64,000 nucleotides of DNA from Clostridium sp. (GTDB lineage Bacteria; Bacillota; Clostridia; Lachnospirales; Lachnospiraceae), in the NCBI GenBank assembly GCA_036634775.1, contig JAVWRQ010000006.1, positions 1,252-65,251 of the forward strand, read 5' to 3'. Below are positions 1-16,302 of the stretch, piece after piece (the first letter of the stretch is position 1; each line of letters starts with the position of its first letter). Under the pieces are notes generated by a model. It ran no database searches and had not been told where the DNA came from. It worked only from the letters and a program-made list of their open reading frames with translations. A program made the translations under genes and the position numbers.

Positions 1-791
1 ATCTCCGGCATCGTCATCTGAAGTGCTGACGGATTCTCTGCATCCCGACTCTCGTGTACAAAATTCAAAGCACATTCAGCAAGCTGGTTAATGGGGATGG
101 CTATATTATGATTCAGATTGCAAAGCAGCAAAAATAAGAAAAAAGTAGTGAGTGAACCGGCACCGATTAGAATAATCACCACATAAAGTGCCATCGTTTT
201 GTACACTTCATTCATGGATATATCTGCTGAGAGAGCCGCCACCGGTTTTCCCTCTGAGTTGGAGATTGCCATCACGCCGGTATACATATAACCAAACTCC
301 GTATGATTGGGGTAAAATGAAATTCCATCCCCCTGCTTCATATAATATTTATATTGTTTCACTACCTCTATCGGATATTCATGTCCTGAGTAATCACCCA
401 AACTGATGCTGTCGCCATATTTTTCTTTCTCCTCTTTTGTTGTTCCGGTCATAACATACATCATATTATCCAATTCATTCTCATTCTTTGGAACAATCAG
501 ATATAAATATTCAATATTGGTATGTTCACGCAAACGGTTGAACTCCTGCTGCGTTTCTTCATATACAGAGCTCTTCTTCAGTGATTTGATACACATCTCC
601 ATATCATCCTCCACTACCGCATCAGATGCCAGATGAATGATACCGGTCAGATATTCCTGATACTTTTGCATCATTCCCCTGTAGTAAGTAGCAAATCCCA
701 CAAATCCAATGATGAGGCTTAGTATGAATGAAAAACCATTACAGGTAAGAAGAATTCGTATACTTAATTTTTTAATTTTCTTATCTCTCAT
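1..791 (-). CDS. Membrane sensor protein (TM-extracellular sensor-TM-HAMP), 3' truncated by the window edge; probably a PP2C/SpoIIE-type phosphatase
   Basis: Not in the ORF track because no stop lies in the window. ATG at 791 overlaps the end of the upstream ORF. My translation is MRDKKIKKLSIRILLTCNGFSFILSLIIGFVGFATYY...VAALSADISMNEVYKTMALYVVIILIGAG...IAIPINQLAECALNF: two TM helices, a Cache-like loop and a HAMP start. The output domain is outside the window; phosphatase is inferred from the STAS/anti-sigma neighbours. Confidence 0.7.
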   Translation of the reverse strand, partial: MRDKKIKKLSIRILLTCNGFSFILSLIIGFVGFATYYRGMMQKYQEYLTGIIHLASDAVVEDDMEMCIKSLKKSSVYEETQQEFNRLREHTNIEYLYLIVPKNENELDNMMYVMTGTTKEEKEKYGDSISLGDYSGHEYPIEVVKQYKYYMKQGDGISFYPNHTEFGYMYTGVMAISNSEGKPVAALSADISMNEVYKTMALYVVIILIGAGSLTTFFLFLLLCNLNHNIAIPINQLAECALNFVHESRDAENPSALQMTMPE

Positions 792-3768
792 TATTGATTC
801 TCCCCCCGACCTCATTATTTATCGTATTGTTCATCTCATCCCGGTCTTTTCCAGTTATAAAAGAATAGATGACCATCGCACCCACGGATAGTCCCGTCAA
901 AATAATCGTACCGGTCAATATTCCAGTATTGGCAATAGCTGCAAAGATACTACTTCCGGCTGAATCTGCTAAATTATCGGAAAAGTTATAAATGCCCATT
1001 GCCCTATCTTCTCCGTATTCCTGTACCTCTTTATGTCTGCAAAAGTACAGGTTTCTGACCGGTGTACCAAAACTGTTGGAAATACCCAATAAAAATACGG
1101 TCAGAACCAACATCGGTATAGTGGGATGCAACGTAAATAGTAATATAGCAAAAAGTGAAAGTATTTCTGATAAATACAAAGTTCGTTTCCCATATTTCCC
1201 ATATAGGCGGTCTGTAATCGCCATGCTTAAGAAAACCCCCGTGAGGGAATTAAGCACCAGCAAAAGACTGATTCTGGATTCTGTCATTCCACCGGAGTTC
1301 GCAAATACCGGTACAAAATAGCTAATAAAACCATTCAATACAATATATGGCATCTGTATCAGTAAAAGATACACCATCGGCTTAGGCGCAGATAAAAAAG
1401 TAATTGCCGATTTCCCCTTTGCTTTTTCCGAACAGGCTCCCGAACGGAAACGTTTGCCAATTACTAGGAATAGTATGATAATACCTGCCCACAGTGCCGA
1501 TGAAAAAAAGAATACCCGCGACTGGCCAAAGCGCTCTGCCACGGTTCCCCCGATTACCATACCACAGATAATTCCGGATAATGAAGAACTGTTCATAATC
1601 GAAAATCCTTCCTGTTGGGTCTTTGTATCGGTAGCTGCTACACTGGCAGATAATATACTTATCACTAGTCCGGTACCAATTCCGTTACATGCAAGTCCAA
1701 AGAATGCAATGCAGTAATCGCCGGACAGTGCCATCATCAAATCACCGGCAAAGGAAAATCCCGCCCCCAAAGCCATCGTGTAACGAAACGTCAGCCGCCT
1801 GAGAAGTGGTGCTGCCACCAGTGCTGCTGCCCCCATCAGAAAGAAATTAACCGTAAGCGGCAGAGAACCGACCAGTGCCCGGTCAAAAGGCAGACTGCCA
1901 TCATAGAGTGATTCCATGAAAACCGGTAAGAAAGAGGACGGCATATTAAATGCAGTATAACAGAATAGTACCCCTAGTCTAACATAGGACATCGGAAGTC
2001 CGGGTTCCTCCCTGTGTTTCTTTCTGCCGGCAAAAAATCCACTGGCCTCATTTACCAGGAACACCGCTACAATTACAAGAAGTGCCACTTTAATAATAAT
2101 ATCCAGAAAAATCCGGCTGATTTTATCATTTAAACTATAGAGTACCATGCCGATCTCAATCGCACCGCACACGTTCCCGGCAACATCTTTAACCGGACTT
2201 TTTACATAGATATAAGAGCCGCTGGAATCATCTTTACCCTTATTAATATAGGAATTTCCAGTACTGTATACCTCTTCCAACTCACTTTTCTCATATTGAT
2301 CCAGAGGATAATAGGCACCAATAGACTGATCTAAATAAGAAATTGCATAAGACCGCTCATTCTCATATTTGATGAGATTACAGTACATTTTATTACTGTA
2401 ATCATAGTGTTTATCAATTGCCCCGGTCATAAATGACTGAAGATTTTTATAGGCATCGCTTCCATAATCACCAGGATAAACCACCCCATTTAAATCATTA
2501 ATATCAATATTGGATACAGCAATCTGCGCCGCCATCTGCATCTGTTCTACCTGAGCTTCAATGTATATTTTGCGAAATTCCCGCAGCACATTGGGGACTA
2601 CTACCACTGCCGTTGCAATGATACAGGCAATCGTGACTAAAAGCAGATGCCATTTAGCAAAATACCTTTTTTTTATCAGCCAATTCAATCCAAACACAGC
2701 AAAACAGATTAGGATAACCAGTCCTGCGACAAATAATACCATCTGCAGCAGCTCCACTACGATCGGTAAACCCCCATAGGTATACCGCTCCGTTGCAACC
2801 CCACTCTCGATTTTCCCACCTGCATTTATTGTAAACAGTCCCACCGACTGGTCATATACCACACTCAGCTGCTGCGCCTCTGCTCTTCCTGACAGGTTGA
2901 TACTCAGTAAAATAGCATCTGACAGCTCGACCCCCGCATATTCGCCAAACAAGTCACCAATCACATACTCTTTTTCTTTCTTTCCGTCTCGAAATGCAAG
3001 GATACTTTCATTTGCGATATCGGCAGCATACAGGGTTTCATCATAACCGGAAGTCAGATAGTAGGGCAATTGATACGAGGCGCCGGGCGGTGCATAAATA
3101 AGCTGATTCCCGCTCTTGGTGCAATGATATATATCACCTCTTTTATCCACTGCATATACACTGTTTCCATCTCTTCCAATGGAAAAATTTTGTATATCAC
3201 CACTGTGTTCCCATGCATATACTTCTGAACCCATTGTTTCTCCGTCTGAAAAATGCAGTTGATATCCCTGTGTTTCTATGGTAATAAACTGAATTCCTCT
3301 CCGCGTCGGCGTGAGTGCAAAGATGCGATGTTTTCCGATCCGTTCGCTGCCTTCCGTGTAATCCTGCTGATAGATTGTTTTATCATAAATTCCATATTTA
3401 TCATATCGTAAAATCTGTTCTTTCATGATCTGAAGTCCATTGGTATCCCAGTCCATCGTACGCACATACAGATTTCCCTCTGCATCCGCTACCGCTTCTT
3501 CTGCCTGAGAAAATTGTCCTTTCCCGTGGGCATCGGAAGATAGACGATATTGTACTTTCCCGTCGATTCCGATTTTCAAAATCTCACATTTACTATCATC
3601 GATCAGATAGGTATTACCCCCTTCATCGGTAGTCATAAAAGAAGGATATGCTACGGTCTCCCCCATAGTCGGAGAAAGAGGAAAATACCATCTTAATAAT
3701 ACAGCTGCCACCAGACAAAAGCAGCCTAACAAAAAGACACCTGCCTTAGTGGCAGTTGATTTCACCAT
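781..3768 (-). CDS. Fusion protein: extracellular beta-propeller-like region + Cache-like sensor domain + C-terminal MFS transporter domain
   Basis: N-terminal TM, then repeated beta-strand units (YLIDDSKCEILKI, AVADAEGNLYV, VYAVDKRGDIY, LYAADIANESI). Two TM helices follow, then a Cache-like segment (YCNLIKY...YIYVKSPVKD..GNVCGAIEIG), then about 12 hydrophobic helices of MFS pattern. ATG 3768 overlaps the upstream TGA. Confidence 0.75.
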   Translation of the reverse strand: MVKSTATKAGVFLLGCFCLVAAVLLRWYFPLSPTMGETVAYPSFMTTDEGGNTYLIDDSKCEILKIGIDGKVQYRLSSDAHGKGQFSQAEEAVADAEGNLYVRTMDWDTNGLQIMKEQILRYDKYGIYDKTIYQQDYTEGSERIGKHRIFALTPTRRGIQFITIETQGYQLHFSDGETMGSEVYAWEHSGDIQNFSIGRDGNSVYAVDKRGDIYHCTKSGNQLIYAPPGASYQLPYYLTSGYDETLYAADIANESILAFRDGKKEKEYVIGDLFGEYAGVELSDAILLSINLSGRAEAQQLSVVYDQSVGLFTINAGGKIESGVATERYTYGGLPIVVELLQMVLFVAGLVILICFAVFGLNWLIKKRYFAKWHLLLVTIACIIATAVVVVPNVLREFRKIYIEAQVEQMQMAAQIAVSNIDINDLNGVVYPGDYGSDAYKNLQSFMTGAIDKHYDYSNKMYCNLIKYENERSYAISYLDQSIGAYYPLDQYEKSELEEVYSTGNSYINKGKDDSSGSYIYVKSPVKDVAGNVCGAIEIGMVLYSLNDKISRIFLDIIIKVALLVIVAVFLVNEASGFFAGRKKHREEPGLPMSYVRLGVLFCYTAFNMPSSFLPVFMESLYDGSLPFDRALVGSLPLTVNFFLMGAAALVAAPLLRRLTFRYTMALGAGFSFAGDLMMALSGDYCIAFFGLACNGIGTGLVISILSASVAATDTKTQQEGFSIMNSSSLSGIICGMVIGGTVAERFGQSRVFFFSSALWAGIIILFLVIGKRFRSGACSEKAKGKSAITFLSAPKPMVYLLLIQMPYIVLNGFISYFVPVFANSGGMTESRISLLLVLNSLTGVFLSMAITDRLYGKYGKRTLYLSEILSLFAILLFTLHPTIPMLVLTVFLLGISNSFGTPVRNLYFCRHKEVQEYGEDRAMGIYNFSDNLADSAGSSIFAAIANTGILTGTIILTGLSVGAMVIYSFITGKDRDEMNNTINNEVGGRINNER

Positions 3769-15964: not shown

Positions 15965-15993
15965 GTGCTTCCCCACCTCTCTTTCATCCATCA

Positions 15994-16302
15994 CTATTCT
16001 TCTTTAATATTCAAGATTCCGGAAAATCCGGTCATCTCAAAAACTTCTTTTATGCCTTGGTTGCAGTGCAGAACTACCATCTCACCGCAATTTAATTTAT
16101 TGATTTCTTTTTGTGTCTCTAAGAATACCCGGAGAGCAGCACTGCAGATATAGCGGGCCTCGCTCATGTCAATTTCTAACTTTATATTTTCCCGAATCAG
16201 TTCCAGCATCACCGGTTCCATCTTACCGGCTGCTATGGTATCCAGTTTTCCATGCAATGAGATAACATCAATTCCATCTCTTGTCGTTCTTATAATTTCC
16301 AT
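15994..16302 (-). CDS. STAS-domain anti-sigma factor antagonist (RsbV/SpoIIAA-like)
   Basis: LHGKLDTIAA and DMSEARYICSAALRVFL (phospho-acceptor Ser region). ATG 16302 has RBS AGAGGA; 102 aa. Confidence 0.9.
   Translation of the reverse strand: MEIIRTTRDGIDVISLHGKLDTIAAGKMEPVMLELIRENIKLEIDMSEARYICSAALRVFLETQKEINKLNCGEMVVLHCNQGIKEVFEMTGFSGILNIKEE

Follow-up and report, generated by a model that had tools for sequence, protein, structure and literature searches.

A STAS/kinase/PP2C partner switch encoded with a relaxase-less type IV secretion-like machine in a Hungatella-like Clostridium

Introduction

Partner-switching triads, each made of a STAS protein, a kinase and a PP2C-type phosphatase, normally control a sigma factor. 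Here we describe such a triad in a 64-kb stretch of DNA (the window), where it shares an 18-gene operon of a Hungatella-like gut Clostridium with a machine that resembles type IV secretion systems (T4SSs). The Bacillus switches RsbV-RsbW-RsbU/SigB and SpoIIAA-SpoIIAB-SpoIIE/SigF are built from the same three protein families. The window genes, however, sit among secretion genes, neither the operon nor the window as a whole has a sigma gene, and their scores against the equivalog models fall far below the cutoffs.

The closest known case is the btr system of Bordetella, in which BtrU (PP2C), BtrW (kinase) and BtrV (STAS) are encoded in the Bsc type III secretion locus, are needed for secretion instead of working as a classical negative regulator of a sigma factor, and have an output that is partly post-transcriptional (PMC8256260). 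The likeness lies in a triad encoded inside a secretion-system locus. In contrast to btr, the window machine is Gram-positive and T4SS-like, its phosphatase is a membrane sensor, and the locus has no counterpart of the extracytoplasmic function (ECF) sigma factor BtrS. The window module is also joined to an enzyme resembling aminoacyl-tRNA synthetases (aaRSs) and to a fusion protein of the major facilitator superfamily (MFS). Two further switches, RbaV/RbaW/RbaY of Rhodobacter capsulatus and SypA/SypE of Vibrio fischeri, use the STAS protein as the output to a non-sigma or unknown target; the former controls the phage-like particle RcGTA and the latter a surface polysaccharide locus (PMC8256260). 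Both belong to other phyla and have other outputs than the window switch, whose type of PP2C cassette also joins phage-tail-like extracellular contractile injection systems (eCIS).

On the side of the machine, the T4SS parts of the window match the models of the core of Mycoplasma integrative and conjugative elements (ICEs), namely the Mbov_0395 pilin, the Mbov_0396 transmembrane (TM) protein and the Mbov_0397 VirB4. Patescibacteria T4SSs use a PF18895 pilin and mostly lack a relaxase (bioRxiv 10.1101/2025.01.22.634366), and the window resembles them in its PF18895 pilin and in the absence of a relaxase match. Unlike either, the window system is chromosomal in a Clostridium that is probably a spore former, as its Spo0A gene (Response_reg plus Spo0A_C) indicates, and it adds a CPBP protease, giant proteins and the partner switch. 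STAS is mentioned 0 times in the paper on the Patescibacteria systems, and a full-text literature search that paired STAS or partner switching with T4SS or VirB4 gave no paper. The window switch is probably a secretion-linked partner switch of an undescribed form, dedicated to the T4SS-like machine.

More fully, we consider it fairly likely that the STAS protein works with the RsbW-like kinase and the membrane-sensor PP2C as a single phospho-switch, dedicated to the relaxase-less T4SS-like machine of its own operon, with an output that is most likely post-transcriptional and without a sigma factor at the locus. The two parts of this proposal differ in strength. Dedicated control of the machine by the switch is highly probable; a post-transcriptional output that needs no sigma factor is a more tentative suggestion, with a chance somewhat short of even.

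Components of the switch

The triad is complete, with intact catalytic and phospho-acceptor motifs. The STAS open reading frame (ORF) spans 15994–16332, and its true start is the ATG at 16302, which follows a GGGAAGAGGA ribosome-binding site and gives a protein of 102 amino acids (aa). The protein scores 53.9 bits against the anti-sigma factor antagonist model TIGR00377 (cutoff 53.45). Its phosphorylatable serine, encoded by an AGT codon at 16143–16141, is Ser54, or Ser64 when numbering begins with the TTG at 16332, and aligns with the first serine of the DSSG motif of SpoIIAA (Ser58; PDB 1auz). This residue is invariant in all 41 of 41 aligned STAS proteins that are linked to T4SS-like loci. 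The kinase aligns with SpoIIAB (1til) over its full length, keeping the N-box E..N and the GxG of the G2 box, with DNGVA as its G1 box.

The phosphatase gene runs off the left edge of the window. An original prediction, made from the window's sequence, had placed a PP2C domain beyond this edge, and the Logan contig L001 (L-numbers label the loci and contigs compared here) bears it out. L001 is identical to the window over 5791 of 5791 overlapping bases and reaches 1036 nt further left, where the edge ORF is completed to a 546-aa membrane-sensor protein with a SpoIIE/PP2C domain (PF07228) at residues 353–542 (E 7e-50). TM helices at residues 13–31 and 204–222 flank a sensor domain of ∼170 aa. 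An AlphaFold2 (AF2) model of the protein (pLDDT 84) comprises a TM helix, an alpha/beta PAS/Cache-like sensor, a second TM helix, two long helices and a PP2C fold. The motifs GGDFYD, DVSGKG, TDG and DD are conserved in an alignment of 30 sequences that includes the window protein. From the part visible in the window, this gene had been read as a TM-HAMP sensor. The TM sensor is there, as the N-terminus of the PP2C protein, but Pfam gives no HAMP match even at E ≤ 1, and the model has just two long helices past the second TM helix. A perfect AT-rich hairpin followed by a T run, resembling a terminator, lies ∼125 nt past the PP2C stop codon, which suggests that the PP2C gene is the last of the string.

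The STAS gene follows the pilin gene, and the kinase gene comes 10.4 kb later, past the lipoprotein and two giant proteins, a distance that the original prediction had put at ∼10 kb; its end coordinate, 16302, agrees with the STAS start. It had described the module as split around the putative substrates. We reject the idea that this split has a function of its own. In the cluster type of Hungatella hathewayi DSM 13479, the nearest cultivated relative (L089; L179 shares this type), the genes run in the order pilin, STAS, lipoprotein, STAS, MatE-kinase, formyltransferase-like protein, PP2C, kinase, M48 peptidase, a 1465-aa protein and a 427-aa protein, followed by rplU. Combined, the two loci give this cluster complete, from the CPBP gene to the gene before rplU, with two STAS genes, two kinase genes and one PP2C gene. 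The PP2C and the second kinase are 39% and 34% identical to their window counterparts, and the 1465-aa protein, which sits after the switch genes, is a homolog of the two giant paralogs of the window (34–36% identity). Among the 24 loci with a STAS gene plus a kinase or phosphatase gene, these are neighbours in 19 and lie at opposite operon ends in five. The same families thus share an operon in another order, and the split layout is no design rule.

Linkage to T4SS-like operons

Relatives of the window VirB4 number in the hundreds at 51–80% identity. More than 469 of them occur in GTDB species genomes, mostly of gut and rumen Clostridia, and the function and control of these relaxase-less T4SS-like operons are without description in the searchable literature. 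We compared 85 T4SS-like loci, taken with 10-kb flanks around VirB4 (1.55 Mb in all), with a control set of 80 loci (1.30 Mb) taken from around the aldolase gene in related Clostridia, in an identical pipeline. Switch genes were detected by six-frame searches with hidden Markov models (HMMs), and loci of at least 20 kb were classed as long. The T4SS loci contain STAS in 51 cases, a kinase in 28 and a PP2C in 16; the corresponding control counts are 0, 0 and 2. At least one switch gene is present in 41 of the 49 long T4SS loci but in just one of the 35 long control loci (Fisher p = 2e-14), and STAS by itself is found in 37 of the 49. The pairing is kept down to 51% VirB4 identity. These counts bear out the link between switch and T4SS that the original prediction had drawn; the possibility it had named against itself, that the two are unlinked in most genomes, does not hold for the STAS and kinase genes. 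Since the pairing recurs in most related operons, the switch is probably a dedicated control of the T4SS-like machine.

The related loci share a core of CPBP, VirD4, the 701-aa family, two to three VirB6-like proteins, VirB4, an SBP-like lipoprotein, a small protein, the 334-aa family and the pilin, which variable large proteins follow. CPBP is the commonest direct neighbour of STAS and adjoins it in roughly every second case; the usual arrangement is STAS-CPBP-VirD4 at the head of the operon, and the stop codon of one gene often overlaps the start codon of the next. The input domains vary between loci, with MatE-kinase fusions in ∼11 loci and STAS-APH fusions in four.

Several of these variants deserve a brief description. 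The MatE-HATPase_c_2 (RsbW-like) fusions are ∼580 aa long (e.g., L089:19619-21355 and L103:19457-21202, with ∼9 more loci), and a formyltransferase-like, LPG_synthase_C-like or PP2C gene lies near several of them. In C. asparagiforme DSM 15981, a 539-aa cNMP-binding-SpoIIE-HATPase_c_2 fusion (L096:20215-21834), followed by STAS and a second CPBP gene, lies downstream of the T4SS-like operon. The fusions of STAS to an APH-type phosphotransferase, a partner rarely expected for STAS (L128:19624-20841, L135:20305-21495, L146:14354-15556 and L173:20522-21694) are ∼400 aa long, and each adjoins a 1030–1090-aa protein. In three of these four loci the next gene belongs to one family, of which one scanned member gave a weak PI3/PI4-kinase-like match. 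A small acidic DUF1292 protein, absent from the window, occurs in the order kinase-DUF1292-STAS-CPBP-VirD4 in at least eight T4SS-like loci (including L109/L176, L124/L174, L142, L144 and L154) and may be a fourth switch component. Finally, VirB4 relatives of 54% identity are found on bins labelled Paludibacteraceae, Prevotella and Parolsenella (L128, L135, L143 and L151), which would reflect either contaminated bins or a transfer of the cluster beyond Clostridia.

The T4SS-like machine

VirB4, VirD4, VirB6-like channel proteins and a VirB2-like pilin are all present in the window, and of these only VirB4 scores below its NCBIfam cutoff. NCBIfam assigns VirB4, the channel proteins and the pilin to Mycoplasma ICE families and VirD4 to the CD1115 family. 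A Pfam scan of the window ORFs of about 100 aa or longer gave no match for a relaxase, integrase or transposase. Housekeeping genes flank the cluster in the window, L174 and L179. Together, the T4SS-like system of the window looks like a resident chromosomal secretion or contact machine. The aldolase of the window is 88% and its VirB4 78–80% identical to those of Hungatella and relatives.

The genes form an unbroken minus-strand string from the CPBP protease gene (29449) down to base 1, with a negative GC skew throughout the window. Junctions along this ∼30-kb string range from a 4-nt overlap to a 64-nt gap, none being larger, which fits a single operon. Consensus scans for promoters (55 sites against 47 ± 7 expected) and terminators (18 against 13 ± 3) gave results close to those from shuffled sequence and were not used. 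RNA runs that share the species label of the window gave 0 reads on its first 20 kb.

The 3′ cassette

Downstream of the kinase gene lie a 461-aa enzyme-like protein, a sensor-MFS fusion and the PP2C. By domain content or weak fold likeness, these are an aaRS/cyclodipeptide-synthase-like enzyme, a propeller/Cache-MFS fusion and a Cache-like membrane PP2C. In the MFS fusion, a 12-TM MFS domain comes after a large extracytoplasmic N-terminal part. The 461-aa family has 108 relatives in GTDB species genomes, and we read the context of the cassette in 80 fetched loci. The sensor-MFS fusion adjoins the 461-aa gene in 75 of the 80, and an orthologous membrane PP2C is found in ∼50. The AF2 model of the 461-aa protein has a pLDDT of 91.8, and the family has invariant motifs that include GGPCLFG and DYITMPALP. 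Foldseek returned weak matches, all of them to class Ic TyrRS/TrpRS proteins (best E 2.4e-3, TM-score 0.3–0.46) except for one cyclodipeptide synthase at rank 50. Fold matches this weak do not let us call the protein either an aaRS or a cyclodipeptide synthase; it seems to represent an enzyme family, so far uncharacterised, with members in ∼100 or more species.

The cassette loci are of several kinds. Twenty-one of the 80 are the ends of phage-tail-like eCIS operons (CIS_tube, Phage_base_V, gp25, Tail_P2_I, Pvc16_N and DUF4280), and 13 carry a giant Calx-beta protein, a subtilase, an HlyD-like protein and two C39-type ABC exporters. Four come after genes for non-ribosomal peptide synthetases (NRPSs). 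STAS and/or kinase genes adjoin ∼15 of the cassettes, and in Blautia sp. MSJ-9 (L026) STAS, kinase, PP2C, enzyme and MFS genes stand in one block. A further T4SS locus, L170, has the enzyme and PP2C genes after the pilin gene. The orthologous phosphatase cassette therefore bridges T4SS-like, eCIS and ABC-exporter loci.

The eCIS operons that end in the enzyme-MFS-PP2C trio come from Lachnospiraceae, Syntrophomonadaceae and others (L002, L006, L008 and L178, and 21 of L009-L088). No STAS or kinase gene was found within ∼19 kb upstream or 10 kb downstream of the cassette-bearing eCIS of L002/L178. In ten loci (L020, L027, L035, L042, L044, L045, L058, L061, L071 and L072) genes for a periplasmic-binding protein, an HlyD-like protein and two C39-type ABC exporters lie between the 461-aa and MFS genes, with a 2600–2900-aa Calx-beta protein and a subtilase encoded upstream. 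Such Calx-beta/HlyD/C39-ABC loci look like type-I-like export of giant proteins in Gram-positive bacteria.

A bolder idea is that gut Clostridia fit the enzyme-MFS-PP2C cassette, as a portable controller of firing or deployment, to delivery machines that are otherwise unrelated (T4SS-like, eCIS and HlyD/C39-ABC). Its input would be either contact or a small molecule that the cell itself makes and exports, and its output would reach the machines directly by way of STAS phosphorylation, without a sigma factor. We regard this as a long shot. If true, contact-dependent delivery systems of Gram-positive bacteria would share one post-translational trigger.

Output of the switch and alternative explanations

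No Sigma70 domain was found in a Pfam scan of window ORFs of about 100 aa or longer, and a six-frame search of the window with an ECF-like sigma family HMM built from related loci gave no match. The observation of the original prediction that no sigma factor was in view thus holds for the operon and for the whole window. The sole sigma-related gene of the window encodes a sigma-54 activator and belongs to a separate operon, and the complete H. hathewayi-type cluster likewise has no sigma gene.

The genes upstream of the operons differ from locus to locus. L174 has a divergent LytTR response regulator and an AgrC-like kinase upstream, beside EF-Tu and EF-G, and in L176 genes for PrsW, an ECF sigma factor and two small proteins precede kinase-DUF1292-STAS-CPBP-VirD4. 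LytTR genes are also found beside several of the related T4SS loci. A sigma gene, in those loci that have one, comes together with PrsW and with small downstream genes, one of them with a predicted TM helix; the small genes downstream of the sigma gene may encode its own anti-sigma factor. That the upstream regulators vary while STAS is fixed inside the operon favours a post-transcriptional role of the switch, although it is no proof of one.

Several observations weigh against a dedicated, sigma-independent switch. Eight of the 49 long T4SS loci have no switch gene within 10 kb, and some of these eight carry a LytS-type histidine kinase at the equivalent position. ECF-like sigma genes occur in 11 of the 85 related T4SS loci, and in L004, the nearest relative of the 3′ cassette, a sigma gene lies between a STAS/kinase pair and the cassette. 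T4SS genes are present in none of the 80 cassette loci; because the PP2C cassette is mostly found on other machines, the phosphatase may serve a broader circuit.

The alternative that survives best, which we nonetheless consider unlikely, is a canonical partner switch in which the kinase would sequester a sigma factor encoded elsewhere and dephosphorylated STAS would free it for transcription of the T4SS operon or its cargo. In its favour, the top PDB and NCBIfam matches of the kinase are anti-sigma factors. The small sigma-70/ECF-like genes of the 11 loci also speak for it, for example in the order sigma-x-x-kinase-DUF1292-STAS-CPBP-VirD4 of L176, as does the sigma gene beside the STAS/kinase pair of L004. 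However, there is no sigma gene in the window, the operon or the complete H. hathewayi-type cluster, and the sigma factors of related loci bring PrsW and possibly an anti-sigma factor of their own. Moreover, the switch genes are predicted to be co-transcribed with the structural genes and so could not be the operon's first trigger.

Another possibility is that the switch controls a transporter/enzyme cassette for small-molecule export or synthesis, or for envelope modification, from which the T4SS gains indirectly. Kinase domains fused to a MatE transporter in ∼11 T4SS loci point this way, as do the aminoacyl-related enzymes that recur nearby (the aaRS-like 461-aa protein, Formyl_trans_N and LPG_synthase_C) and the NRPS genes that precede the cassette in four loci. 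STAS domains are also known to regulate SulP-family transporters (PMC8256260). Yet the most frequent place of STAS is beside CPBP-VirD4 at the operon's 5′ end, well away from the transporters, and many T4SS loci with STAS have no such transporter within 10 kb, so that we judge this explanation improbable. Least credible by far is a general stress or biofilm partner switch that neighbours the T4SS genes by chance, with no functional tie; the switch genes do differ between loci in where they stand and how they are ordered, but the enrichment (41 of 49 against 1 of 35), the tight junctions, the invariant phospho-acceptor serine and the pairing kept to 51% VirB4 identity all contradict it.

Proposed mechanism and implications

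In the dedicated phospho-switch that we favour, the kinase would phosphorylate STAS on Ser54, and the PP2C would remove this phosphate in response to a signal sensed by its extracytoplasmic domain. The signal may relate to the neighbouring aaRS-like enzyme and MFS sensor/exporter. Unphosphorylated STAS would then bind the kinase or another partner and thereby switch on assembly of the T4SS-like machine, substrate loading or secretion. The original prediction had suggested that STAS may bind the secretion ATPases, and the one hint towards such binding is that STAS-CPBP-VirD4 junctions are tight or overlapping in relatives. This output would act after transcription of the operon, as has been proposed for BtrU/V/W of Bordetella and SypA/SypE of Vibrio, and control of the promoter would be left to the variable upstream regulators, which in the window would be the LytTR protein.

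A built-in phospho-switch would offer a genetic and biochemical handle on these operons: Ser-to-Ala and Ser-to-Asp alleles of STAS or deletion of the phosphatase could lock the machine on or off in relatives that can be grown, such as H. hathewayi DSM 13479 and C. asparagiforme DSM 15981, and reveal its secreted cargo. The occurrence of one cassette with T4SS-like systems, contractile injection systems and giant-protein exporters points to a shared means by which Gram-positive bacteria time the use of costly delivery machines. The finding would also widen the known range of non-sigma outputs of partner switches.

Other genes of the operon and the window

The coordinates of the operon and of further window genes are collected in Table 1. 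The 701-aa surface protein, which belongs to no Pfam family, is a paralog of the 334-aa surface protein and has relatives in 78 of the 85 T4SS-like loci. In other loci, the family at the position of the 214-aa lipoprotein resembles SBP_bac_3. Orthologs of the large lipoprotein (40% identity) come after STAS in L089 and L090. The 864-aa and 1300-aa giant paralogs, which have no Pfam match, predicted TM helix or signal peptide, are candidate cargo of the T4SS-like machine. A search for relatives with the 864-aa protein as query found none, which suggests that the giant proteins vary too much to be useful markers.

Table 1. Genes of the T4SS-like operon and other genes of the window discussed in the text
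Feature	Position	Strand	Evidence or remark
CPBP/Rce1-like intramembrane protease	28646-29449	-	PF02517, E 5.6e-21; first gene of the string
VirD4-type coupling ATPase	26643-28643	-	PF02534, E 3.8e-51; NCBIfam conju_CD1115, 294 bits (cutoff 250)
701-aa surface protein, N-terminal signal and C-terminal TM	24541-26646	-	TM 5-23, 672-690
Two VirB6-like polytopic channel proteins (414 aa, 613 aa)	23282-24526, 21425-23266	-	NCBIfam MMCAP2_0566, Mbov_0396, above cutoffs
VirB4-type ATPase	18654-21428	-	PF19044, E 6.8e-22; NCBIfam VirB4_plasma, 547 bits (below cutoff of 590)
214-aa lipoprotein, 83-aa protein, 334-aa surface protein	16753-18657	-	Same order kept in L089, L090
T4SS pilin (VirB2-like)	16397-16699	-	PF18895 T4SS_pilin, E 4.7e-14; NCBIfam Mbov_0395, 56 bits (cutoff 40)
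STAS anti-sigma-antagonist-like protein, 102 aa	15995-16302	-	PF01740, E 2.6e-10
Large lipoprotein, LTGC lipobox	ORF 12194-15994 (1266 aa); ∼1256 aa from ATG 15964	-	
Giant paralogs, 864 aa and 1300 aa	9576-12170, 5650-9552	-	Candidate cargo
RsbW/SpoIIAB-like GHKL Ser kinase, 144 aa	5177-5611	-	PF13581 HATPase_c_2, E 4.3e-18
461-aa cytosolic enzyme-like protein	3768-5153	-	No Pfam family
996-aa sensor-MFS fusion	781-3771	-	MFS_1 at residues 599-939, E 1.1e-31
PP2C gene, part (N-terminal 271 of 546 aa)	1-815 (ORF 3-815)	-	Open at left edge of window
Divergent LytTR-domain regulator, DUF4440/SnoaL-like N-terminus, no receiver	29598-30392	+	PF04397, E 2.4e-17
230-aa protein	30586-31278	-	No Pfam family
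Sigma-54 activator	36814-38490		Separate operon
Spo0A	50246-51064	-	Response_reg, Spo0A_C

Two genes beyond the 5′ end of the operon have homologs near the 3′ cassette in other genomes. The divergent LytTR protein is likely a transcriptional regulator, and a full-length homolog of it (27% identity) adjoins the cassette in L043. The 230-aa protein has a 47%-identical homolog that adjoins the STAS-kinase-PP2C-enzyme-MFS block of L026 in divergent orientation. Either protein could be a partner or an output of the switch.

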